Origin: a virus
Taxonomy: Duplodnaviria > Heunggongvirae > Uroviricota > Caudoviricetes
Length of the DNA stretch: 35,532 bases
Virus record (IMG/VR): IMGVR_UViG_2703718856_000009
Location: 1-35,532 of that record
Direction: 5' to 3' (one strand)
In this document: piece after piece, positions 19,130 through 34,074 of the stretch
How the letters are laid out: every line of letters starts with the position of its first letter
How positions within the stretch are numbered: the stretch's first letter is position 1
Translations under genes and position numbers: made by a program
Notes under the pieces: generated by a model
Told to the model about the DNA's origin: nothing
Databases searched by the model: none
Seen by the model: only the letters and a program-made list of their open reading frames with translations

Positions 19130-19352
19130 TCCCCGCTTTATCCAGATTGCACTGCCCTAGCGCCGACAACAGACTGACATTCAAATCTAGGCTACCCGCA
19201 TAAGTCAGCGGTTCAGAAATGGCTGGTTGCGGGGTTTCAGCGGTCAGACTCGCCGGTAACGGTATAGCCGGAACTGGCACGTAAACTGTCCGCGAACTTT
19301 CGCAACCGGTCAGCAGCGGCAGCAGGCACAGGGCGTACAGCACAATCATCAT
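19077..19352 (-). CDS. Rz1-like o-spanin (lipoprotein), overlapping Rz in another frame
   Basis: Internal start MMIVLYALCLLPLLTGC gives a signal peptide plus lipobox Cys, followed by a Pro-rich stretch. Confidence 0.55.
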   Translation of the reverse strand: MMIVLYALCLLPLLTGCESSRTVYVPVPAIPLPASLTAETPQPAISEPLTYAGSLDLNVSLLSALGQCNLDKAGIRRIEASRSGRSESGSK

Positions 19353-19629
19353 CCGCAACAGCCACTTTGATATCAGCCTGGGTTCTCTGTGACTCCAGTG
19401 CGATCTGTTGTTTTGCATGCTGGTTAGCCTCCAGAACTGTATTGACGATTTGTAGTGATTGCAGGACGTTATTGGTAATGGCTGTTGCTGATTCAGCATT
19501 TCGTACAGCCTCATCAGCACGTTTCTTTTCGTGCTGATATTTGCTGTAGTAGTGGTTAGCAGACCAGATGAAAGAACCGATGACAGTAAAGAAGAATGCA
19601 GAGATAGCCAGCTTATAGCTCAACTTCAT
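19237..19629 (-). CDS. Rz-like i-spanin
   Basis: 130-aa ORF with an N-terminal TM segment, directly after the endolysin gene. Confidence 0.75.
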   Translation of the reverse strand: MKLSYKLAISAFFFTVIGSFIWSANHYYSKYQHEKKRADEAVRNAESATAITNNVLQSLQIVNTVLEANQHAKQQIALESQRTQADIKVAVADDDCAVRPVPAAAADRLRKFADSLRASSGYTVTGESDR

Positions 19630-20089
19630 TTACCACCCCACCAGCCTCTTTAAACCGGGAAATCAGGTCACCGATTTTATGTTCATACTGACCGTAACCT
19701 GCACCAGGTAACGACGCCCAGATATTGCTGCAACGATCGATAGCCTGACGAATATCGCCGCGATCAATCATCGGTAAAGCGCCACGCTCTTTAATCTGCT
19801 GCAATGCCACAGCGTCCTGGCTTTTCGGAGAGAAGTCTTTCAGGCCAAGCTGCTTGCGATAGGCATCCCACCAACGGGAAAGAAGCTGGTAACGTCCGGC
19901 GGCTGTTGATTTGAGTTTTGGGTTTAGCGTGACAAGTTTGCGAGGGTGATCAGAGTAATCAGTAAACAGTTCGCCGCCAACAATAACATCATAACCGTGG
20001 TTACGTGTCGGTTGTCGCCCGTTATCCGTTCCTTCTGACCATGCCACCATATCGAGGAAAGCTATACGCTGGGAATTTAGTACCTGCAT
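19613..20089 (-). CDS. Endolysin, lambda R-type lytic transglycosylase
   Basis: 158 aa; long stretches match lambda R as I remember it (..FLDM.AWSEGTDNGRQ.TRNHGYDVIVGGELFTDYSDHPRKLVTLNPKLKST.AGRYQLLSRWWDAYRKQLGLKDFSPKSQD..). Confidence 0.95.
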   Translation of the reverse strand: MQVLNSQRIAFLDMVAWSEGTDNGRQPTRNHGYDVIVGGELFTDYSDHPRKLVTLNPKLKSTAAGRYQLLSRWWDAYRKQLGLKDFSPKSQDAVALQQIKERGALPMIDRGDIRQAIDRCSNIWASLPGAGYGQYEHKIGDLISRFKEAGGVVNEVEL

Positions 20090-20092
20090 AAA

Positions 20093-20419
20093 TTACTCCT
20101 TAGAGCCACCAAACTTATTACCGATTACTCGCATTGCAGCCCCACGAATAGCATCAACACCGATCAGCCCCACACCACCACCAATGGCAACAGATAGTGA
20201 TTTAGGCCATCCGACATACTCAAGAGCGGATGCAAAAGTCAGCGTCAGAGCGCCACAGAGTAGAATTTCGAGTGTTTTTCGCTTCCAGCCGCCACCACCG
20301 CCAAAATAGGCAATACGTAAACCAGCCATAACAATCGACATAATCACTGCGCCCAGCGGTGTGTCTCCACGCCACCAGCTCTGGAACAACTCCAGCCAAG
20401 TATTTGGGTTATGAGGCAT
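20093..20419 (-). CDS. Holin
   Basis: 108-aa ORF with hydrophobic segments, immediately upstream of the endolysin. Confidence 0.75.
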   Translation of the reverse strand: MPHNPNTWLELFQSWWRGDTPLGAVIMSIVMAGLRIAYFGGGGGWKRKTLEILLCGALTLTFASALEYVGWPKSLSVAIGGGVGLIGVDAIRGAAMRVIGNKFGGSKE

Positions 20420-20564
20420 TTGTAGTTATCTCTCACCTCGCCAATACAGGAGGTGCCAATTGAGGGAATACCACGTACCGCACATCAGAAGCGGAAACGT
20501 CAAAGAAGCCGAGTCAATGGATAAATGTGGGATAGACCAGGACCAACGAATCCCCAGCCCAAGA

Positions 20565-20593
20565 AACGACAAAACCCGCTCGACGGCGGGTTT
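20565..20593 (-). terminator. Candidate intrinsic terminator on the late-gene strand (tR'-like)
   Basis: On the - strand: CCCGC-CGTCGA-GCGGG hairpin followed by TTTTGTCGTTT, lying between Q and the holin. Confidence 0.4.
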
Positions 20594-20683
20594 AAGCTGT
20601 GTGGCGAAGTAACCACTCTTAACACAGTAATCTAGAAAATGCGGACCGCGTTAGTGATTTTTTCAACTTTTTGATTTATCTTA

Positions 20684-20711
20684 TTGAACACAAGAAACCA
20701 CTGCCTATAAA
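20684..20711 (+). promoter_or_regulatory. Candidate sigma70 promoter of the AT-rich cassette
   Basis: TTGAAC, 16-nt spacer, TATAAA, about 70 nt upstream of the cassette ATG; AAGGA RBS 9 nt before the ATG at 20781. Confidence 0.4.
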
Positions 20712-20780
20712 TCATATCAACCCAAACCATAAAAACCAAAAAATCAAATGATTACATTAACTAGATAAGGAACAAAGTTA

Positions 20781-21866
20781 ATGAAAGAAAGCCGCAGCAA
20801 GGTCATTCAATATAAACGTGCAGTCATCCCTAATTGCACAGCAACGCTTCAACAGATCATAGAATCTATAATTTCTGAAAATGGCGCAGCCTATAAAGTT
20901 AGCGCAAGAAGAGAACAGATTAACCCCTCCGATAGCAATAGTGGATTTAGAGTGGTTAACCGCAGCAGCACTTTCAAGACAGTGTTATTCGGGCAACTTA
21001 TTTTGTTTGAACAAGGTAAAAGCCAAACACTTATGACAATCGCTGATGATGTCAATTATTATGACATCAATGCTATAACATCGAAGCAAATTAAATTAGC
21101 CGAAGACGAAAAAATAAGTGAAGCTGAAAAACAAAAAATAACACGAGAATTTATTGATTCAATACTTTACTTTGGGATTCGTGATAATCATGTGATGATC
21201 GTCCAATCACCGGCTCTAAGGACTAAAGACATAGAAAGCCATCTTAATTGGTTAATCCATTCATTTAGCACTATTTTTAATGGTGACGACTTCCTTGTGC
21301 TTCAAGATAAACCAACTGAAGACACCATAAAAAAAATGCATGAAAGTCCAGTCAAGAAAATAAATTTCGGCAGTATCCCAATCAAAAATTCTGATTCTGA
21401 AGATGTAGTTAAAATAAATAATATAAGTAACACAAACGACCTCCCCACAACAATAAAAGAACAGGTCGAAAAAGTTAAGAAAATAAAATTCATGCCAACT
21501 GGTAAAGGTGGCGATATTATAAAAGCTGCTTTTGGCGAAGCATGGTTTAATAATTTACAACTGGAAGATTCTCTTGATGAATCCAATTTACAAGTTAATC
21601 TAGAAATAACCTATTTCCGCAAGACAAACAAAGATGGTCAACGTGTACTCGATACTTTAGCAACTTCACTCAGAAATATAGACGATGAAGATATTAGTAT
21701 AAACCTTCAAGGTGGTGGCATAATTAAAGGCAGTGATTTAAAACTATCCGGTAAAGTAAACGTCCAATATAACAATGGACTTATTGATGAAAATGATTTA
21801 TATTTACAAATGCACAAATGGCTGACTTCAAAGGTTCAAACTGGAGAAGTAAAAGTTAAAAACTAG
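20781..21866 (+). CDS. Hypothetical 361-aa soluble protein (AT-rich cassette gene 1)
   Basis: Long ORF with RBS; Lys/Asn/Ile-rich; no family recognised by eye. Confidence 0.8.
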   Translation: MKESRSKVIQYKRAVIPNCTATLQQIIESIISENGAAYKVSARREQINPSDSNSGFRVVNRSSTFKTVLFGQLILFEQGKSQTLMTIADDVNYYDINAITSKQIKLAEDEKISEAEKQKITREFIDSILYFGIRDNHVMIVQSPALRTKDIESHLNWLIHSFSTIFNGDDFLVLQDKPTEDTIKKMHESPVKKINFGSIPIKNSDSEDVVKINNISNTNDLPTTIKEQVEKVKKIKFMPTGKGGDIIKAAFGEAWFNNLQLEDSLDESNLQVNLEITYFRKTNKDGQRVLDTLATSLRNIDDEDISINLQGGGIIKGSDLKLSGKVNVQYNNGLIDENDLYLQMHKWLTSKVQTGEVKVKN

Positions 21867-21884
21867 AACCAACAGGAGGCGGAA

Positions 21885-22397
21885 ATGAGCTTCTTTAAAT
21901 TTATTATAAGATTCTTATCCGCCTTCGCTTTTGGGTTTGCAATATTTTACTTTGCATCTAGAAAAATTGACTTAAGTGGCATATCTACTCCATGGTCATT
22001 AATAACCTTATTAGCATTCCCTTTCAGTTATTGTATCGCAGCCTTTTTTAAAGTTTCTGAAGCCGACGAAAACACATCACTATCAGATAATGAACTAAGA
22101 AGATTACGACCGATAATTGATGCAAAAAAAAGACATCTTGGATTTCTTATCTTTTTTTATCTTATTGCTGCTTTTTCAGGAGCAATTGGTATGTTCGCTA
22201 TTTCCAGAGAGTCGATAGTTTATCTATATTTTATATCTGCTTGTGGAGGAGGCATTGCTGCTGCAATGTATTCTTTTTTCTTTATCAGCTCAATAAACAG
22301 CGAAATACAGAGATTTAAAAGCATCTTATTACACAGAGCTGAAGCGAATAAAAAAACGAAAGAATTTATAGACTCATTAAACAAAAAGGCGGATTGA
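21885..22397 (+). CDS. Hypothetical 170-aa membrane protein, about four TM segments (cassette gene 2)
   Basis: AGGAGG RBS 7 nt before the ATG; four hydrophobic stretches (FIIRFLSAFAFGFAIFYFA, LITLLAFPFSYCIAAFF, LGFLIFFYLIAAFSGAIGMFAI, LYFISACGGGIAAAMYSFFFI). Confidence 0.8.
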   Translation: MSFFKFIIRFLSAFAFGFAIFYFASRKIDLSGISTPWSLITLLAFPFSYCIAAFFKVSEADENTSLSDNELRRLRPIIDAKKRHLGFLIFFYLIAAFSGAIGMFAISRESIVYLYFISACGGGIAAAMYSFFFISSINSEIQRFKSILLHRAEANKKTKEFIDSLNKKAD

Positions 22398-22415
22398 AAT
22401 CCGCCTTTTTGTTTT
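22386..22415. terminator. Intrinsic terminator (bidirectional hairpin) between cassette and Q
   Basis: AAGGCGGA-TTGAAA-TCCGCCTT followed by TTTTTGTTTT, with an A-run on the other side; overlaps the cassette stop codon. Confidence 0.7.
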
Positions 22416-22417
22416 CT

Positions 22418-22780
22418 TCAATCCATTTCTAATCTAATATCCAACATTGAAAGACAACCTTCGATAAATCCTTCAGCCATTTTAATCTCAATGCGTATAA
22501 GTTTCTCGTCCTTTTTCTTTTCTTTAGCAATTTTTCTCTTAGAAAGACCATACAAATAATGTGCTACTAGTAACGAATGCTCATAAGGTTTTTTCTTCTT
22601 CAGCCGAGCAAGGCACCCCTCAATGATTAATCCGTCGGCATCAGTACATGAGAGTCTGTTTTTACCTGTTTGTGGTAAAAGCCCTTTAAATCCTGCTGCG
22701 ATTGGAGAATAGTCAACGCCTGAATTATCACTAGCAGCCCATCCCCCCCAACGCTCAAGAACCATCTGAATATCACGCAT
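22418..22780 (-). CDS. Late-gene antiterminator Q
   Basis: Start taken at MRDIQMVLERWGGWAAS...; ends ...GCLSMLDIRLEMD; resembles K-12 QuuD-type Q as I remember it. Confidence 0.8.
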   Translation of the reverse strand: MRDIQMVLERWGGWAASDNSGVDYSPIAAGFKGLLPQTGKNRLSCTDADGLIIEGCLARLKKKKPYEHSLLVAHYLYGLSKRKIAKEKKKDEKLIRIEIKMAEGFIEGCLSMLDIRLEMD

Positions 22781-22797
22781 CAAATTTCTCCACAAAA

Positions 22798-23793
22798 TCA
22801 GGCCAGCACGCCAGTTGCCAGCGCACGATCGATAAAACGAAATATCAGCTCCAGCTGAGAGCCATACTTCTCTTCAAATGCCACGGTATCCGCATGCAGC
22901 TCGTCGTGATGCTTTCTGCACAAAGGCAACACAAAGAGGTCATGCGCTTTTGTACCCATTCCCCCCTGACCGTGGCCTATCAGGTGGTGGGGATCATCAG
23001 CAGGTTTTCCACAACATGCGCACGGCTGCGTCTTAACCCAACGCGTGTACTTTTCGTTAACCCAGCGGCGACGTTTTGGGCGTAACATAAAAGAGTCCGG
23101 CGACTCCGGATCCACTTTCAGCGCCAGCACCTTTTTTGCCTTATCCTGGATGATGCTGGTGGCAGGAACCGAAGGCACAAGGTCACTTTCCCGGGTGACA
23201 GACGGCACAACAGGCTTTGGTAATCTCAGTGCCTTACGGGCTGCACTTTCCGGTAAGGCATCCGCCAGGTCATTACGAACCAGCCACCAGCACAGTTCCG
23301 GCATTGTCACAACGTGACTATCATCAAAACCGAGATCCCGACGCACAACAGACAACACCCAGCGGGCACAGTTATCCGTTGCCATTGATTCCAGCCGTTC
23401 CGTGAACTGATCGCGCAGCTGGTTATCGCAGTGCCAGCACAGACGGATTGCGCCCGGAGCGTGTCGCATTGTGGTCATGTTCTCGCTGTGCCAGTCGGAA
23501 TGAGGCCACTGGCAGCCTTTTTCACGAAGTAACCAGCTTTCAAGACATTCCACGCCACCAGCACGACGGATCACTGCCTCATTGCGGAACACGGCCCGAA
23601 CGGCAGGATCATCCGCCAGCGGTTGTGATGCCGCCGGAACGGCACCGCTGGCGAAAGATGAATAACGTTCCGGCTCAGGCTCCAGCAGGACACGCCCCTG
23701 CATAAACAGGGGCATCAGCTCTGAACCAGGTCTGAACAATACGATCCCCATACGCGGGGCAATTTCAGGGGTCAGTAGTGCTCTCACAGTCAC
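22798..23793 (-). CDS. Prophage protein with C-terminal HNH/zinc-binding-like motif (DUF968-like)
   Basis: 331-aa ORF; C-terminus ...QPCACCGKPADDPHHLIGHGQGGMGTKAHDLFVLPLCRKHHDELH. Confidence 0.7.
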   Translation of the reverse strand: MTVRALLTPEIAPRMGIVLFRPGSELMPLFMQGRVLLEPEPERYSSFASGAVPAASQPLADDPAVRAVFRNEAVIRRAGGVECLESWLLREKGCQWPHSDWHSENMTTMRHAPGAIRLCWHCDNQLRDQFTERLESMATDNCARWVLSVVRRDLGFDDSHVVTMPELCWWLVRNDLADALPESAARKALRLPKPVVPSVTRESDLVPSVPATSIIQDKAKKVLALKVDPESPDSFMLRPKRRRWVNEKYTRWVKTQPCACCGKPADDPHHLIGHGQGGMGTKAHDLFVLPLCRKHHDELHADTVAFEEKYGSQLELIFRFIDRALATGVLA

Positions 23794-23794
23794 C

Positions 23795-24622
23795 TCAATG
23801 AACGGTATCGAGCAGCTTTAACAGCTCAGGGAATCGGGATTCGAAGAAATGCGGCTGCGTCTCGCGCGGATTTGCGGGACTGGTGATGTTCTTGCCGAAC
23901 ATGCAGCCTTTCGCTGTCAGCGACCAGAATTTTTTGATGTTGTTAATCGAGGTACGGCTGTATCGTTCGCGCTGCTCGACGATCCCCAGCTTCACCATCT
24001 GGTGATATGCCTGATTAGCCGTCAGGCGGATACCATACTGCTTCAGCAGTGCACTCAGCGACAGCGTAGGGCGGCTTGAACCATCTGGCGCATCAGCAGG
24101 TGCATCAATGGCATAGATCGGCATAAGTTCAGGAAGACCAGCTACCTTTGATAATTTCTGGTATGCACCAAGTTTCGAGGAGTTTGACAGATTTAGAGTC
24201 TTTGCTGCTGATTCAAGCAGAATGACCCCGGATTTAATTTTGTCGGATGTGGTTTCTTCTGGTGATGAATTATGAAGCGCATCAAAAGTACGTATCACTT
24301 TTAAGCTGAATGCCGGGCTGATCCACATTGCATATGCATAGACCAGCTCTTTACAGACATACGTCCCACCATTGCGCCCCTGAATGGTGATGACAGGAAT
24401 ACTACGGGAATCTCCCGTAGTTTCTTCTTCCAATAATTCCACAAGAGCCTTCGTTTCAGGACGACGCATAAACTCGTGAACTTCCAGCGAACGGGAGGAG
24501 CGATTCTCACCAGCGGCAAGAAGAGCAGCTTTCTGAAGGTCGTTAAGACAGTAGTTAGATTCGAAGTACTGGCGCACAGAAACGCCATCAATTACAAGCA
24601 ACTGATTCATTGGTTTCTCCAC
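23795..24622 (-). CDS. Antirepressor (KilA-N domain plus C-terminal Ant-like domain)
   Basis: 275 aa; N-terminus MNQLLVIDGVSVRQ...GTYVCKELVYAYAMWISPAFSLKVI is KilA-N-like. Confidence 0.8.
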   Translation of the reverse strand: MEKPMNQLLVIDGVSVRQYFESNYCLNDLQKAALLAAGENRSSRSLEVHEFMRRPETKALVELLEEETTGDSRSIPVITIQGRNGGTYVCKELVYAYAMWISPAFSLKVIRTFDALHNSSPEETTSDKIKSGVILLESAAKTLNLSNSSKLGAYQKLSKVAGLPELMPIYAIDAPADAPDGSSRPTLSLSALLKQYGIRLTANQAYHQMVKLGIVEQRERYSRTSINNIKKFWSLTAKGCMFGKNITSPANPRETQPHFFESRFPELLKLLDTVH

Positions 24623-24772: not shown

Positions 24773-25168
24773 TTACCGAGTTGCTAATTTGCAACTCGCT
24801 TTTTCGTACTTACTGATAGTGATCTCGACCTTCCCCTCCGGGATAACCGGTCCCCACTCCACCAGCATTCTTTTCACCTGACTGTCGTCTTCCCACACAC
24901 CCGCGTGGGTCAGGGCGTCAAACAGCGCCTTGTTATAGTTGTCCAGATCGCGGATCCGGTTATCCGGAGGAAACAAAACGATCTCCACTGAAGCAGGTGC
25001 CGACGTTGGTTTCGGCAGACGACGTAACTGCTCAACTATTGCTGCGCACGCCGCGCTCTGGAATTTTCACCCCGCCGCGCTTATCAGGCTCTTACCAGCA
25101 AACGCCCCTTTGTTGGGGTGTCGCCAGTACGTGTTCACGCTGGGCGGAAAAGGAAGGATCAGCTTCAT
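24773..25168 (-). pseudogene. rusA: rusA-type Holliday junction resolvase interrupted by in-frame TGA at codon 34
   Basis: ATG at 25166-25168 gives MKLILPFPPSVNTYWRHPNKGAFAGKSLISAAG, then TGA (25067-25069), then the same frame continues KFQSAACAAIVEQLRR...DLDNYNKALFDALTHAGVWEDDSQV. Confidence 0.75.
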
Positions 25169-28154: not shown

Positions 28155-28781
28155 ATGGAAACGGTTGGTCAGCGTATAAAAGCTCTGAGAAGAGTTACCG
28201 GAACGTCCCAGAAAGAATTGGGTAAATTTTGTGGAGTAAGCGACGTTGCTGTGGGGTACTGGGAGAAAGACATCAATACCCCTGGTGGGGAGGCACTTTC
28301 GAAATTAGCGAAGTTCTTCAATACGTCAATAGATTACATTCTTTATGGTGCTGAGTTTGAAGGCAAACTCGTCACAAACATGCGCAGAGTTCCTGTAATA
28401 TCGTGGGTTCAGGCTGGGCAGTTTACTGAGTGCAGGGCAGCAGAAGTGTTTAGTGAAGTGGACAAGTGGGTAGATACATCATTAAAGGTTGGTGATAACT
28501 CATTTGCATTAGAGGTTAAAGGTGACTCCATGACTAACCCTAATGGCCTCCCAACAATACCAGAAGGCGCAACAGTGATTGTAGATCCAGATGCAGAACC
28601 TCGTCATGGAAAAATAGTCATCGCTCGACTTGATGGAACAAACGAAGCTACAGTAAAAAAATTAGTCATCGATGGCCCTCAAAAGTTTTTAGTGCCATTA
28701 AATCCTCGGTATCCCAACATCCCTATCAATGGTAATTGCCTTATCATTGGTGTAGTCAAAGGAGTTCAATACGAACTCTAA
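28155..28781 (+). CDS. CI-type repressor (HTH plus LexA-like S24 peptidase domain)
   Basis: 208 aa; N-terminal HTH (..VTGTSQKELGKFCGVSDVAVGYWEK..), C-terminal S24-like region with GDSM and a downstream Lys. Confidence 0.9.
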   Translation: METVGQRIKALRRVTGTSQKELGKFCGVSDVAVGYWEKDINTPGGEALSKLAKFFNTSIDYILYGAEFEGKLVTNMRRVPVISWVQAGQFTECRAAEVFSEVDKWVDTSLKVGDNSFALEVKGDSMTNPNGLPTIPEGATVIVDPDAEPRHGKIVIARLDGTNEATVKKLVIDGPQKFLVPLNPRYPNIPINGNCLIIGVVKGVQYEL

Positions 28782-28789
28782 GACCTCTC

Positions 28790-28865
28790 TTCTCTAACTA
28801 AGGCACCGAACTAAGAAAAGTTTGGTGTTTTCTCTTGCCATAATAACTAAGTTAAGTTAGATTTT
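28790..28865. promoter_or_regulatory. Candidate OL/PL-like operator region
   Basis: CTAAG-containing operator-like repeats (28798-28815, 28847-28860) just downstream of cI. Confidence 0.3.
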
Positions 28866-29028
28866 ATATCAAAGATAACGAACAGGCAGGACGCCCACGA
28901 AGTAGCCGCCTGGGGCATATGAAGTCCAGGATGATTCGTTAGCAACAAAAAAGCGCCCTACAGGACGCTTAGCTCTTTAACAATCTGGTCCCCATCAACA
29001 AGTAACTGATAACTTGAGGAGATGTGAA

Positions 29029-29235
29029 ATGCACAAAACAGAACCCAAAATCGTCGCGCCTGGCTACACAGATGAGGAAATTTATGAGTGGATGACAAAG
29101 AAGCTGGCAGCTATAAACCAGCTTCGTGAAGTGCTGTCTTATCGACAGGAAACAATAGACTCCTTAAAAAAACTGGATCAGGAAATCACGGTTTTATCAC
29201 AGGATGTTACTTTAGATATTGTGCAGACAAATTAG
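29029..29235 (+). CDS. Hypothetical 68-aa protein (coiled-coil-like)
   Basis: ATG at 29029 with GAGGA RBS 9 nt upstream; 3' end overlaps the convergent 144-aa gene by 29 nt. Confidence 0.5.
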   Translation: MHKTEPKIVAPGYTDEEIYEWMTKKLAAINQLREVLSYRQETIDSLKKLDQEITVLSQDVTLDIVQTN

Positions 29236-29641
29236 GATCCCATTCATTTTCGTCAAAATCATCAAAGTGATGAATTTGTGATCTCCAGTCTCGATAATCT
29301 AAAAATTTCTGGGCGGTTACGCTTATTTTATCAAGTGTGAGTTCATCCTGAATTGAAAGAAGAAGTTCATCAAATTTCATCTCATTAATCTGTTTTGGCA
29401 TCCAGTGATGCTTCATCAGAATAAGGTGAACCAGAGCCTTTTTCCCATTCAACTGATTATAGGGAGTGCCGAATTTCTTCCGGTGCTCATGTAAGACAAG
29501 GTCCAAAAGAGTAAGTAATGTTGCCCTTGATTCAACTTTGCTTATTTCGACTGATGACACTACCCCACTGATTTCAATGCCCCGATACTTTCCAACATTT
29601 TCACAGTGGGATTTGTACAGCGTATAGATATTACCGGACAT
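29207..29641 (-). CDS. Hypothetical 144-aa protein (AT-rich moron opposite to early-left transcription)
   Basis: AAGGA RBS 7-8 nt before the ATG (29639-29641); direct repeats GTTGTTGGGGA(A)TAAC twice (29657-29674, 29690-29708) in its upstream region. Confidence 0.6.
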   Translation of the reverse strand: MSGNIYTLYKSHCENVGKYRGIEISGVVSSVEISKVESRATLLTLLDLVLHEHRKKFGTPYNQLNGKKALVHLILMKHHWMPKQINEMKFDELLLSIQDELTLDKISVTAQKFLDYRDWRSQIHHFDDFDENEWDPNLSAQYLK

Positions 29642-29789
29642 TTCTTTTCCTTTTGCGTTGTTGGGGATAACCAGATTAACCGAATCCTTGTTGTTGGGGA
29701 ATAACTAGGTCCACCTCGCCTGATGTGGCTAAAAGCAGGCACATAACAGCTAAGTATTTTCAACCAGAGAGAATCCTTAGCGTTGTGGT

Positions 29790-30109
29790 GAATGCGGCTC
29801 AGCGCACGCGGGTTAAGGTTGAGGCTGACAGTCGACCTTCTGTGGATACCCACCCGCCTGGTGTGCAACCTTCGCCAGGCACCGGGAGGCACCCGGCACC
29901 ACAACTTTATGCTGTGTGTAGTCCTGGCGGTACCAGCTTGTACCCTTGCTTCCGGCTGGTACCGTCCTTTTTACAAAACAGAGAAGAGCATCACCGGACG
30001 ACGGGCTCATAACCCAATCCATCCGGGCGGCAGTCACCGCAGGTGTTCTTCTCTGTTTTGTGGAGAAACTAACCGACCTTGCAGGGTCGATATGATGAGG
30101 AGCAGCAAA
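29790..30109 (+). ncRNA. Candidate structured RNA / regulatory leader upstream of the yfdP-like gene
   Basis: GC-rich with several perfect hairpins, including a 13-bp long-range stem (29974-29986 with 30048-60); the ORF-track translation across it is not protein-like. Confidence 0.3.
29928..29972 (+). terminator. Intrinsic terminator inside the leader
   Basis: Perfect 10-bp stem CGGTACCAGC / GCTGGTACCG with a 17-nt loop, followed by TCCTTTTT. Confidence 0.6.
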
Positions 30110-30472
30110 ATGGCTAGCGAACGCAGTACTGATGTGCAGGCATTTATCGGGGAGCTGGACGGCGGCGTATTTGAAACCAAAATCGGCGCAGTTCTCAGTG
30201 AAGTCGCTTCCGGTGTGATGAACACGAAAACCAAAGGTAAGGTCTCGCTCAACCTAGAAATCGAACCGTTTGATGAGAACCGAGTGAAAATCAAACACAA
30301 ACTCTCATATGTTCGCCCGACTAACCGCGGGAAAATTTCCGAAGAAGACACCACCGAAACGCCGATGTATGTCAATCGCGGTGGTCGCCTGACTATTCTG
30401 CAGGAAGACCAGGGACAGTTGCTGACTCTTGCCGGTGAACCTGACGGAAAACTCCGCGCAGCAGGTCGTTAA
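30110..30472 (+). CDS. yfdP: YfdP-like prophage protein (120 aa)
   Basis: Start at ATG 30110 (MASERSTDVQ...) with GAGGAG RBS; the ORF-track upstream extension is non-coding; same length as K-12 CPS-53 YfdP. Confidence 0.65.
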   Translation: MASERSTDVQAFIGELDGGVFETKIGAVLSEVASGVMNTKTKGKVSLNLEIEPFDENRVKIKHKLSYVRPTNRGKISEEDTTETPMYVNRGGRLTILQEDQGQLLTLAGEPDGKLRAAGR

Positions 30473-30537: not shown

Positions 30538-31362
30538 ATGTCTCAGAACTTAGACGCAACCGCAATTAATCAAATCCATGCCCTTATTTCTGGTCAGGGT
30601 GTTAATGAAATTATCAGTAAGATTGGTGCCGATGCTGTGGCATTGCCTGAGAATTTCCGCATTCATGATCTGGAAAAATTTAATTTAAATCGCTTCCGTT
30701 TCCGTGGTGCGCTTTCCACTGCCAGCATCGATGACTTTACCCGTTATTCTAAAGATCTTGCAGATGAAGGCACCCGCTGCTTTATCGATGCTGATAATAT
30801 GCGTGCCGTCAGTGTGCTTAACCTGGGTACTATTGATGAACCAGGTCACGCAGATAACACCGCCACACTCAAACTGAAAAAGACAGCACCGTTCTCTGCT
30901 CTGTTGTCTATTAACGGCGAGCTTAACTCCCAGAAGTCACTAGCAGAATGGATTGAAGACTGGGCAGACTATCTTGTGGGCTTTGATGCTAATGGTGACG
31001 CTATTCAGGCAACAAAAGCGGCTGCGGCTGTCCGTAAAATCACGATTGAAGCAAACCAGACCGCTGATTTTGAAGATAATGACTTCAGCGGCAAACGCTC
31101 CCTGATGGAGTCTGTCGAAGCGAAGACCAAAGACATTATGCCAGTGGCATTTGAATTTAAATGCGTTCCGTTTGAAGGTCTGAAAGAACGTCCGTTTAAA
31201 TTACGCCTCAGTATTATCACTGGCGATCGTCCTGTACTGGTTCTGCGCATTATTCAGCTGGAGGCGGTGCAGGAAGAAATGGCTAACGAATTTCGTGATC
31301 TGCTTGTTGAGAAATTCAAGGACAGCAAAGTAGAAACCTTTATTGGTACTTTCACCGCCTGA
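30538..31362 (+). CDS. yfdQ: YfdQ-like protein (DUF2303-like, 274 aa)
   Basis: Length and sequence match my recollection of K-12 CPS-53 YfdQ; followed by the R-S-T neighbours. Confidence 0.75.
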
Positions 31363-32684: not shown

Positions 32685-33034
32685 TGGAGCCATACAGCCT
32701 CACACTCGATGAGGCCTGTCATTTTCTCAAGATATCCAGACCGACTGCCATTAACTGGATACGCACAGGGCGTCTTCAGGCAACACGCAAAGATCCCACT
32801 AAGAATAAATCTCCTTACCTCACAACACGACAAGCCTGCATTGCGGCTCTTCAGTCTCCGCTGCATACTGTCCAGGTGAGCGCGGGTGATGGCATAACAG
32901 AGGAAAGAAAATGTCACTCTTCCGCAGAGGTGAAATATGGTACGCCAGTTTCACATTGCCGAACGGTAAAAGATTTAAACAGTCTCTTGGAACAAAGGAC
33001 AAAAGGCAGGCGACAGAACTCCATGACAAGCTAA
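32684..33034 (+). CDS. xis: Excisionase (P22 Xis-like)
   Basis: Internal ATG at 32684 with AAGAGGTGA RBS; [36 protein letters not shown]...; overlaps the int start. Confidence 0.8.
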
Positions 33035-34074
33035 AGGCTGAAGCATGGCGGGTCAGCAAACTTGGTGAAATACCTGATATAACGTTCGAGGAAGCGTGTG
33101 TCAGGTGGCTTGAAGAGAAAGCACATAAAAAATCACTGGACGATGACAAAAGCCGGATCGGATTCTGGCTTCAACATTTCGCAGGAATGCAACTAAGAGA
33201 CATTACTGAATCAAAAATTTATTCAGCAATGCAGAAAATGACGAACCGGCGTCATGAGGAAAACTGGAAACTCAGGGCAGAAGCATGCAGAAAAAAAGGG
33301 AAACCTGTTCCAGAATACACGCCAAAACCAGCGTCCGTTGCAACGAAGGCTACGCATCTTTCATTTATAAAGGCCCTACTAAGAGCCGCAGAGCGTGAAT
33401 GGAAAATGCTGGATAAGGCACCAATTATTAAAGTGCCTCAACCAAAGAATAAACGGATCCGCTGGCTGGAGCCCCATGAAGCACAAAGGCTGATTGATGA
33501 ATGTCCGGAGCCATTAAAGTCTGTTGTTGAATTTGCACTGGCAACAGGCTTAAGACGCTCGAACATCATCAACCTTGAATGGCAACAAATAGATATGCAG
33601 CGCCGGGTGGCATGGATAAACCCGGAAGAGAGTAAATCAAACCGCGCAATTGGCGTTGCGCTGAATGATACTGCATGTCGCGTATTGAAAAAACAAATCG
33701 GGAATCATCACCGTTGGGTATTTGTGTACAAGGAAAGCTGTACCAAACCAGACGGAACGAAAGCGCCAACAGTAAGGAAGATGCGGTATGACGCAAACAC
33801 AGCCTGGAAAGCGGCGCTGAGACGGGCTGGTATTGATGATTTCAGATTTCACGACTTGAGACACACCTGGGCAAGTTGGCTGGTTCAAGCCGGAGTCCCG
33901 TTGTCAGTGTTACAGGAAATGGGAGGCTGGGAGTCTATCGAAATGGTTCGTCGATATGCTCACCTTGCACCTAATCACCTTACCGAACACGCACGGCAAA
34001 TAGACTCGATCCTGAACCCATCGGTCCCAAATTTGTCCCAGTCAAAAAATAAGGAAGGTACTAATGATGTGTAA
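32911..34074 (+). CDS. int: Tyrosine integrase, P22 Int-like
   Basis: 387 aa; [34 protein letters not shown]...; C-terminal catalytic region [17 protein letters not shown]...; 15 bp from the tRNA 3' end. Confidence 0.95.

Follow-up and report, generated by a model that had tools for sequence, protein, structure and literature searches.

An AT-rich two-gene cargo beside antiterminator Q of an SfIV-like Escherichia coli prophage is probably a phage-exclusion module of RexAB type

What lies between the antiterminator gene Q and the lysis genes of the caudovirus record IMGVR_UViG_2703718856_000009? We analysed this record over its full 35,532 nucleotides (the window, to whose first letter all positions refer). 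The host element is an SfIV-like E. coli prophage, and a 2.4-kb test segment (20400–22800) is 100% identical to a prophage of E. coli CFSAN061762 and 99.6% identical to Shigella phage SfIV. An earlier note on this DNA had described two co-oriented + strand genes, one for a soluble protein of 361 amino acids (aa) and one for a 170-aa protein with four transmembrane (TM) segments, both opposite to their neighbours. Open reading frame calls and hydrophobicity agree with this description, and the two genes, here called A and B, indeed run against every flanking gene, all of which are on the − strand. The features of the locus are as follows.

20781–21866, + strand: gene A, 361 aa, ATG start; soluble product with a predicted RexA-like two-domain fold, the proposed sensor/activator
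21885–22397, + strand: gene B, 170 aa, ATG start; four-helix membrane protein, the proposed membrane effector
20684–20711, + strand: promoter-like TTGAAC-16 nt-TATAAA upstream of A, a weak match found by eye, of putative function
20767–20771, + strand: AAGGA, Shine-Dalgarno sequence of A, 9 nt before its start
21874–21879, + strand: AGGAGG, Shine-Dalgarno sequence of B, 5 nt before its start
22379–22414, both strands: perfect 16-bp hairpin, candidate bidirectional intrinsic terminator common to the convergent B and Q
~20663–22421, no strand assigned: swappable cargo (moron) of promoter, A, B and terminator, 33% GC
20093–20419, − strand: lambda-family holin, the first lysis gene past the slot (PF05106, 6.6e-25; RefSeq annotation)
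22418–22795, − strand: antiterminator Q, right-hand border of the slot (PF06530, 3.8e-53; RefSeq 'antiterminator Q family protein')
20571–20625, − strand: conserved 55-bp element with a tR'-like terminator, left-hand border region, upstream of the holin gene

A and B are separated by 18 nt, which contain the Shine-Dalgarno sequence of B. At the other end of the cassette, the stop codons of B and Q are 20 bp apart and the hairpin fills this gap. Its folding energy is −22.3 kcal/mol on the + strand (z −7.6) and −22.8 kcal/mol on the − strand (z −6.1), a stability equalled by none of 200 shuffles; given this stability and the U-runs on both strands, it looks like a bidirectional terminator. The cassette had been placed between Q and a PR'/holin region. 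Q and the holin gene are where this puts them, whereas PR' itself was not located: the left-hand border held only the tR'-like terminator (20572–20593, − strand; terminator scan, fold −12.8 kcal/mol, z −2.3), and neither a consensus scan nor inspection by eye gave a sigma-70 consensus on the − strand of the conserved stretch 20594–20678. Nor is there room for PR' between the Q stop and the cargo, since the ~20 bp there are taken by the shared hairpin.

Several observations mark the cassette as a unit that can be exchanged. GC content is 0.32–0.39 over 20600–22550, as against 0.50–0.59 in both flanks, and in blastn comparisons with sister prophages that carry other cargo, homology stops at 20662/20678 and restarts at 22422. 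The resulting swap limits (~20663/20679 to 22421) nearly coincide with the extent of 20640–22415 given in the earlier note, whose suspicion of separately acquired AT-rich DNA fits a discrete cargo of this kind. Relatives hold other genes instead: a KAP-family NTPase in the same position and opposite orientation (locus L003, 1817–3148; PADLOC PDC-S20, 1.4e-176, with PifA-like similarity), or a TIR-domain protein, likewise matching in position and orientation (locus L004, 1818–2633; PADLOC TIR-TM, 1.7e-57). PADLOC grades both as defence or defence-candidate proteins. The 55-bp border element recurs with 98% identity in WGPS2, an Stx2a phage with a divergent A/B pair of its own, beyond which the element lies. 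From the homology breaks and the alternative cargos at one position, we conclude that the segment from Q to the late terminator acts as a cargo hotspot. The slot in SfIV-like prophages is present in numerous E. coli genomes and has the appearance of a defence hotspot; it merits attention as such, and in Stx phages it adjoins toxin genes. In phiP27, a GIY-YIG nuclease gene is annotated inside the span of the corresponding match. Equipped with start signals and a terminator, the A/B pair forms a self-contained, AT-rich cargo that travels on prophages and satellites.

Shigella copies of the cassette seem to be in decay, those of E. coli being intact. In SfIV, IS1 splits gene B into pieces of 108 and 76 aa (locus L002, 3501–3827 and 4560–4790), and the A cluster contains many Shigella flexneri fragments of 124–261 aa. 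Another S. flexneri phage, SfI (JX509734 / NC_027339), has in its immunity region (28834–29670) a rexA that is 100% identical to the canonical lambda gene; SfI and SfIV thus hold different Rex-type pairs at different slots, the divergent one of SfIV being in the Q slot.

How widespread is the pair? A word-indexed search with A gave ~90 clusters, and an exhaustive profile search matched 823 representatives at 50% identity, 314 of them at E<=1e-30. With 823 cluster representatives matching its profile, A is a real gene and not a chance open reading frame; most of the 150 matches listed are ~315–380 aa long. Named members come from Enterobacterales, Aeromonas, Vibrio, Shewanella, Pseudomonas, Marinobacter, methanotrophs and a Rhodocyclaceae metagenome-assembled genome. 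Nearly all are labelled 'hypothetical', the few automatic names not bearing on function. In all 40 A-bearing loci, a B homolog follows directly (gap −29 to +52 nt), and a four-pass membrane partner is encoded next door in one transcription unit. B diverges faster than A (mean pairwise identity 29% versus 47%), and the two identity matrices co-vary (Pearson r 0.93, Mantel p <= 0.001), which fits an obligate, co-inherited pair, albeit any tightly linked genes would show some co-divergence.

The genomic settings of the pair are diverse. It occupies the Q/lysis interval, on the opposite strand, in the window, in prophages of Serratia and in Stx2a-converting O157:H7 phages; a survey of Q–S junctions had been suggested in the earlier note. 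The Stx2a version (phage WGPS2, locus L069, 3492–5055) is 32% identical and lies directly after Q, upstream of a methyltransferase gene, three tRNA genes and stx2AB. Sister clades in Perceval/LF82-type prophages of E. coli and in Acinetobacter phages stand directly downstream of a CI-type repressor gene and on its strand; lambda rexAB, too, directly follows cI. Yet other copies come straight after the primase in P4-like satellites of Aeromonas. In A. veronii (loci L006–L009, 6001–7690), that primase has the domains Zn_Ribbon_Prim/Toprim_3/DUF927, and among the other products of the satellite are Ogr/Delta, GPO_N and a P2-type capsid protein; we take this position to resemble the satellite defence hotspots described for E. 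coli P4. Small islands by flagellar genes or by a primase/DUF3987 element house the pair in Vibrio and Oceanospirillum, and in Vibrio cidicii it adjoins insertion sequence elements. Of 5,426 complete E. coli genomes, 2 had the window type, 13–14 the Stx2a type and 42–43 the cI-adjacent type. Roughly 1% thus have one of these three subfamilies, all of them labelled 'hypothetical protein' and all missed by PADLOC 2.0.

A is devoid of hydrophobic segments (maximum KD19 0.95). Its AlphaFold model, built on a 52-sequence alignment (mean predicted local distance difference test score, pLDDT, 73.5; predicted template modelling score, pTM, 0.71), is confident over residues ~1–198 and 300–355 and falls below pLDDT 50 at 199–250 and 258–273. 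In the model, an N-terminal domain of seven strands plus helices is followed by an inserted domain of a sheet and four helices, from which a C-terminal helix leads back to the first domain. The RexA crystal structure has been described in like terms, with seven strands in the sheet of the N-terminal domain, a sheet and four helices in the inserted domain and a C-terminal helix that returns to the first (PMC11077077). The predicted fold and domain order of A match those of lambda RexA, and on the model the cytoplasmic component has the RdgC-like two-domain fold of that protein; RexA scored 12.0 against A and RdgC 6.6. The insert at 199–273 (DNA ~21375–21599) is charged and rich in Asn and Lys, is predicted at low confidence and differs among family members in both length and sequence; it may serve as a flexible linker or determine specificity. 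Two labels, independent of each other, hint at the same Rex-type conclusion: the A homolog of Acinetobacter phage phi1_092021 (locus L068, 3483–4484) was deposited by an independent depositor as 'DefenseFinder protein', and that of V. cidicii (P0260) bears the UniRef name 'Recombination-associated protein RdgC'.

B has four hydrophobic segments (2–25, 37–58, 83–107 and 110–134), modelled by AlphaFold (AF2) as four long helices (pLDDT 82). By the positive-inside rule, both termini, the conserved, charged and basic TM2–TM3 loop and the basic C-terminal tail should be cytoplasmic. Across the family, one cluster is invariant or nearly so—E70/R72/R73, in the 'LSxSE-RRL' motif of the TM2–TM3 loop—and F144 and R151 of the basic C-terminal helix are conserved as well. 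When the model was run against BFVD with Foldseek, the top hit was the truncated copy of SfIV and the second a 165-aa protein of mycobacteriophage Sbash (probability 1.00, TM-score 0.57/0.58, E 0.076). We identify the latter as gp31 by its length of 165 aa in the Sbash genome and by R70/D73 in the loop after TM2, as published. In gp31, R70A and D73A in the central cytoplasmic TM2–TM3 loop abolish defence (PMC6426596), and in B the E70/R72/R73 cluster occupies the corresponding loop, with residue numbers that are almost identical. One uncultured siphovirus, ctylc9, is the source of both Foldseek rank 1 for A and rank 33 for B. An 'RRL' loop motif shared by B and RexB was set aside as chance, the Salmonella RexB being without it. 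Rejected, too, was a holin or lysis role for B, which is on the opposite strand to holin, endolysin and spanin, has no holin Pfam hit and travels with A even in loci without lysis genes.

What, then, is the function of this cassette? We consider it likely to be a prophage-carried, two-component phage-exclusion (abortive-infection) module of RexAB type. From predicted structure, A and B look like a very distant structural relative of lambda RexA/RexB, and, all sequence tests being negative, the relation is visible only in fold and architecture. The likeness of a cytoplasmic protein plus a small multi-pass membrane protein to RexA/RexB had been offered in the earlier note as an analogy; with gp31 as the best non-self viral structural match of B and with sister clades right after CI, it has become stronger. 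Orientation, the weak promoter match and the pair's own terminator suggest that it may be expressed in lysogens.

A course of events can be proposed on the model of lambda RexAB, Sbash gp30/31, RexABpp of P. putida and Sucellos of V. cholerae. The pair would be transcribed in the lysogen from its own promoter and without dependence on the late operon, which runs the other way. A, probably dimeric, would bind DNA non-specifically and sense a product of the infecting phage, for instance a phage protein or an intermediate of replication or recombination. Once activated, A might engage the cytoplasmic loop of B (E70/R72/R73), its C-terminal helix or both, whereupon B, probably oligomeric, would open a channel or pore. 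The membrane would depolarise and ATP drop, and growth would stop or the cell die before the invader completes its cycle.

Several results weigh against this interpretation, first those of sequence comparison. Neither A nor B matched anything in Pfam, NCBIfam or PADLOC 2.0 (for A, no Pfam hit at E<=1), and PHROGs held both only in families of unknown function, in keeping with the earlier statement that neither product was recognisable. As a control, lambda RexA and RexB hit their own families at 1e-97 (PF15969) and 8.5e-92 (PF15968); the window's A and B hit neither, and PF15969 was not found at E<=10 among 75 diverse A homologs. The A family aligned by hhalign to a 5-sequence RexA profile at 0.2% probability and to Sbash gp30 at 1.2%, and the B family to a 4-sequence RexB profile at 2.2% and to gp31 at 0.1%. 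Structure, too, has its counterpoints. The E-value of the gp31 match (0.076) is weak, and a bundle of four membrane helices is a structure of low specificity. A exceeds RexA in length by ~80 residues, its low-confidence insert 199–273 having no counterpart there, and its isoelectric point is near-neutral (6.3 versus 8.6 for RexA), though that of Sbash gp30 is 6.1. The long charged helix at the C-terminus of B is absent from RexB. The window pair, moreover, follows Q on the opposite strand and is not part of a cI operon as in lambda. Finally, the promoter is the weakest element. Of the signals with which the earlier note had credited the cassette, ribosome-binding sites and terminator stand, while the TTGAAC-16-TATAAA element (20684–20711) is a weak match by eye and was not listed by the consensus promoter scan.

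Further searches were equally silent. Lambda RexA and RexB entered as single sequences into profile comparison gave insignificant results, a search of PDB sequences with the A profile returned no hit at E<=10, and no recurrent Pfam family, RdgC included, emerged among the 75 A homologs. Foldseek of the A model against BFVD did not recover RexA, its two significant hits being uncharacterised siphovirus proteins. The profile and structure searches that had been recommended for both proteins have given a divided answer: profile comparisons were negative and A did not lead to RexA, whereas B led to gp31. The literature searched contained no experiments on the A/B family.

Could the pair instead be Rex-like and yet serve the prophage's own lysis-lysogeny decision, with A as a DNA-binding modulator and B as its membrane anchor or regulator? 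We think this unlikely, despite three points that speak for it, namely the RexA-like fold of A, the sister clades right after CI and the switch function of RexA itself, which biases the CI/Cro switch toward lytic growth without needing RexB (PMC11077077). The pair also sits in P4-like satellites, by flagellar genes and at a primase island, where there is no CI/Cro switch, and the copy in the window is beside Q, far from the repressor. In addition, its linkage in 40 of 40 loci makes the membrane partner integral, whereas the switch role of RexA is independent of RexB. A switch role and a role in defence are, besides, not mutually exclusive.

Somewhat less probable is an addiction (toxin-antitoxin-like) cassette or another moron for host fitness, in which A would restrain B, a membrane toxin, and the pair would stabilise its element or bring a benefit unrelated to phages, such as stress tolerance or colonisation. 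The occurrence of the cassette on many kinds of mobile element is compatible with this, as is the Rex-like pair gp30/gp31 of phage Butters, where roles are reversed and the membrane protein sequesters a toxic cytosolic partner. Lambda RexB, moreover, reportedly affects ClpP-dependent antitoxin turnover. The Shigella copies argue otherwise: with B interrupted in viable SfIV and other copies fragmentary, loss of B or of A is tolerated. The other cargos of the slot are defence genes, not toxin-antitoxin pairs, and no toxin-antitoxin or virulence family was matched in Pfam, NCBIfam, PADLOC or PHROGs.

We give slightly less credence again to superinfection exclusion by an injection block, without abortive infection, in which B would act at the inner membrane and A be accessory. 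B is a small polytopic inner-membrane protein on a prophage moron, and many prophage exclusion proteins are membrane proteins. Known injection blockers, however, are usually single membrane proteins without an obligate cytoplasmic partner of 360 aa; the RexA/RdgC-like fold of A points to intracellular, DNA-linked sensing, and the conserved loop of B is predicted to be cytoplasmic. The least probable alternative, an RdgC-like modulator of recombination or replication that is tethered to the membrane and takes part in the DNA metabolism of host or phage but not in immunity, is very unlikely, as RexA scores far above RdgC, RdgC is not among any recurrent Pfam families of the 75 family members, and both an obligate four-TM partner and locations in mobile-element hotspots are foreign to RdgC.

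If the cassette is indeed an exclusion module of RexAB type, what would be gained? Rex was the first abortive-infection system seen, in Benzer's rII work, and how RexA senses and how RexB opens are still unexplained. That the mechanism is unsolved is due in part to the canonical family being tiny and nearly invariant: tblastn of a phage collection yielded four distinct RexA sequences, and a scan of viral contigs near-identical copies only. A large and diverse family with the same fold and architecture would offer conserved positions to mutate and natural variants to compare (SfIV, Perceval in LF82, Stx2a phages of O157:H7), and the cassette, at 1.7 kb and with native signals, is compact enough to be cloned directly. 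The concept as such is not new. RexAB-type systems defined by structure have been described and validated, and the method by which they are recognised is published (PMC12894663; bioRxiv 10.1101/2024.07.02.601686). New here is a large family of this kind that is still labelled 'hypothetical' in the annotated records checked.

The remaining genes near the slot are all on the − strand:

19237–19629, − strand: Rz
19613–20089, − strand: endolysin
22798–23793, − strand: DUF968/HNH protein
23795–24622, − strand: KilA-N protein

Past these, a RusA-family Holliday-junction resolvase gene (24773–25168, − strand) is a pseudogene with an internal stop according to RefSeq, a 71-aa reading frame (24773–24988) being left in frame. 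The prophage's own CI-type repressor gene lies at 28155–28781. The region after the repressor is the slot of the Rex-like pair in sister phages; here (28782–30472) it holds open reading frames at 29207–29641 (− strand, 144 aa) and 29792–30472 (+ strand, 226 aa), neither with a Pfam or PADLOC match, and beyond them come genes for a DUF2303 protein (30538–31362) and the integrase (32911–34074).

How does the A/B pair compare with the known systems of this type? With lambda RexA/RexB (PF15969/PF15968; RexA structure PDB 8TWQ) it shares the arrangement of two adjacent, co-transcribed prophage genes, the first for a soluble and the second for a small four-TM protein, and its sister clades stand in the identical position after cI. 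The differences are those of size, place and sequence: 361 aa for A against 279 for RexA, with a disordered insert of ~75 residues, and 170 aa for B against 144 for RexB, with a long basic C-terminal helix; a location after Q, on the opposite strand and outside the cI operon; and a sequence similarity below detection by Pfam and hhalign.

Similar in size are gp30/gp31 of Sbash, an experimentally validated Rex-like system (PMC6426596), to which gp44/gp43 of Gordonia phage CarolAnn can be added as another. Sbash gp30 has 372 aa and gp31 165 aa; gp31 is the best non-self viral structural match of B (TM-score 0.57), both have critical or conserved charged residues near position 70 of the cytoplasmic TM2–TM3 loop, and the Sbash pair, like that of the window, is displaced from the repressor and adjoins lysis genes. 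Unlike A/B, these are actinobacteriophage systems whose triggers are specific mycobacteriophage proteins. Sequence similarity to A/B is absent (1.2% and 0.1% by hhalign), and it is B alone that resembles gp31, in structure only.

A third comparison is with RexABpp of P. putida (PP_5643/PP_5644; Sci Rep 2026, PMC12894663), a prophage-borne system for which DNA binding and RexB-dependent membrane damage have been shown experimentally. Its sizes (37.5 kDa for RexApp-His, at least 181 residues for the four-TM partner) fit the A/B family better than those of lambda do. RexApp, however, is linked to RexA by HHpred at 98% probability, whereas the A/B family gives no profile signal. From published primers and mutants (PMC12894663), we derived the termini of both proteins and a residue fingerprint. 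The termini (HRTATFV.. and ..VYNKQSRLMV for RexApp, MLIGQLANP.. and ..LYYLGYKLQE for RexBpp) are absent from ~330 proteins and 40 loci of the family, and of the seven fingerprint residues of RexBpp at most three are matched in it. A/B is therefore not a close ortholog of RexABpp; DNA pattern scans for P. putida rexABpp, whose native start codon is GTG, found no copy.

The fourth system, Sucellos (SclA/SclB), is cassette 68 of the V. cholerae superintegron and is covered by the current DefenseFinder models. It is structurally similar to RexAB and not matched by a Pfam domain, requires both genes, has its own promoter and an abortive phenotype, with SclB a predicted pore, and has most of its homologs in prophages of Enterobacteria (bioRxiv 10.1101/2024.07.02.601686). 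At least one later study lists it among defence systems detected in phage genomes. Compared by description only, Sucellos fits the A/B family very closely, with a Rex-like structure lacking a Pfam match and with two genes, and on that footing the family might be the already validated Sucellos. Two observations count, as weak negatives, on the other side: no V. cholerae protein was found among the relatives of the Vibrio A/B member, and the surroundings of the Vibrio copies showed no attC-like (VCR) sites. It is also possible, if at present a tentative suggestion, that A/B form a Rex-like lineage of their own, distinct from canonical RexAB, RexABpp and Sucellos alike. Spread over Gamma- and Betaproteobacteria in more than 800 clusters at 50% identity, this lineage could be the most widespread of its kind, and the Q-side segment of SfIV-like and Stx2a prophages would be a dedicated defence-cargo hotspot that also adjoins stx2. 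If true, the deep alignment of this lineage, with E70/R72/R73 of B and Y11, R43, E152, R298 and W347 of A as the residues of use, would provide an E. coli-native handle on the 70-year-old question of how RexA switches RexB.

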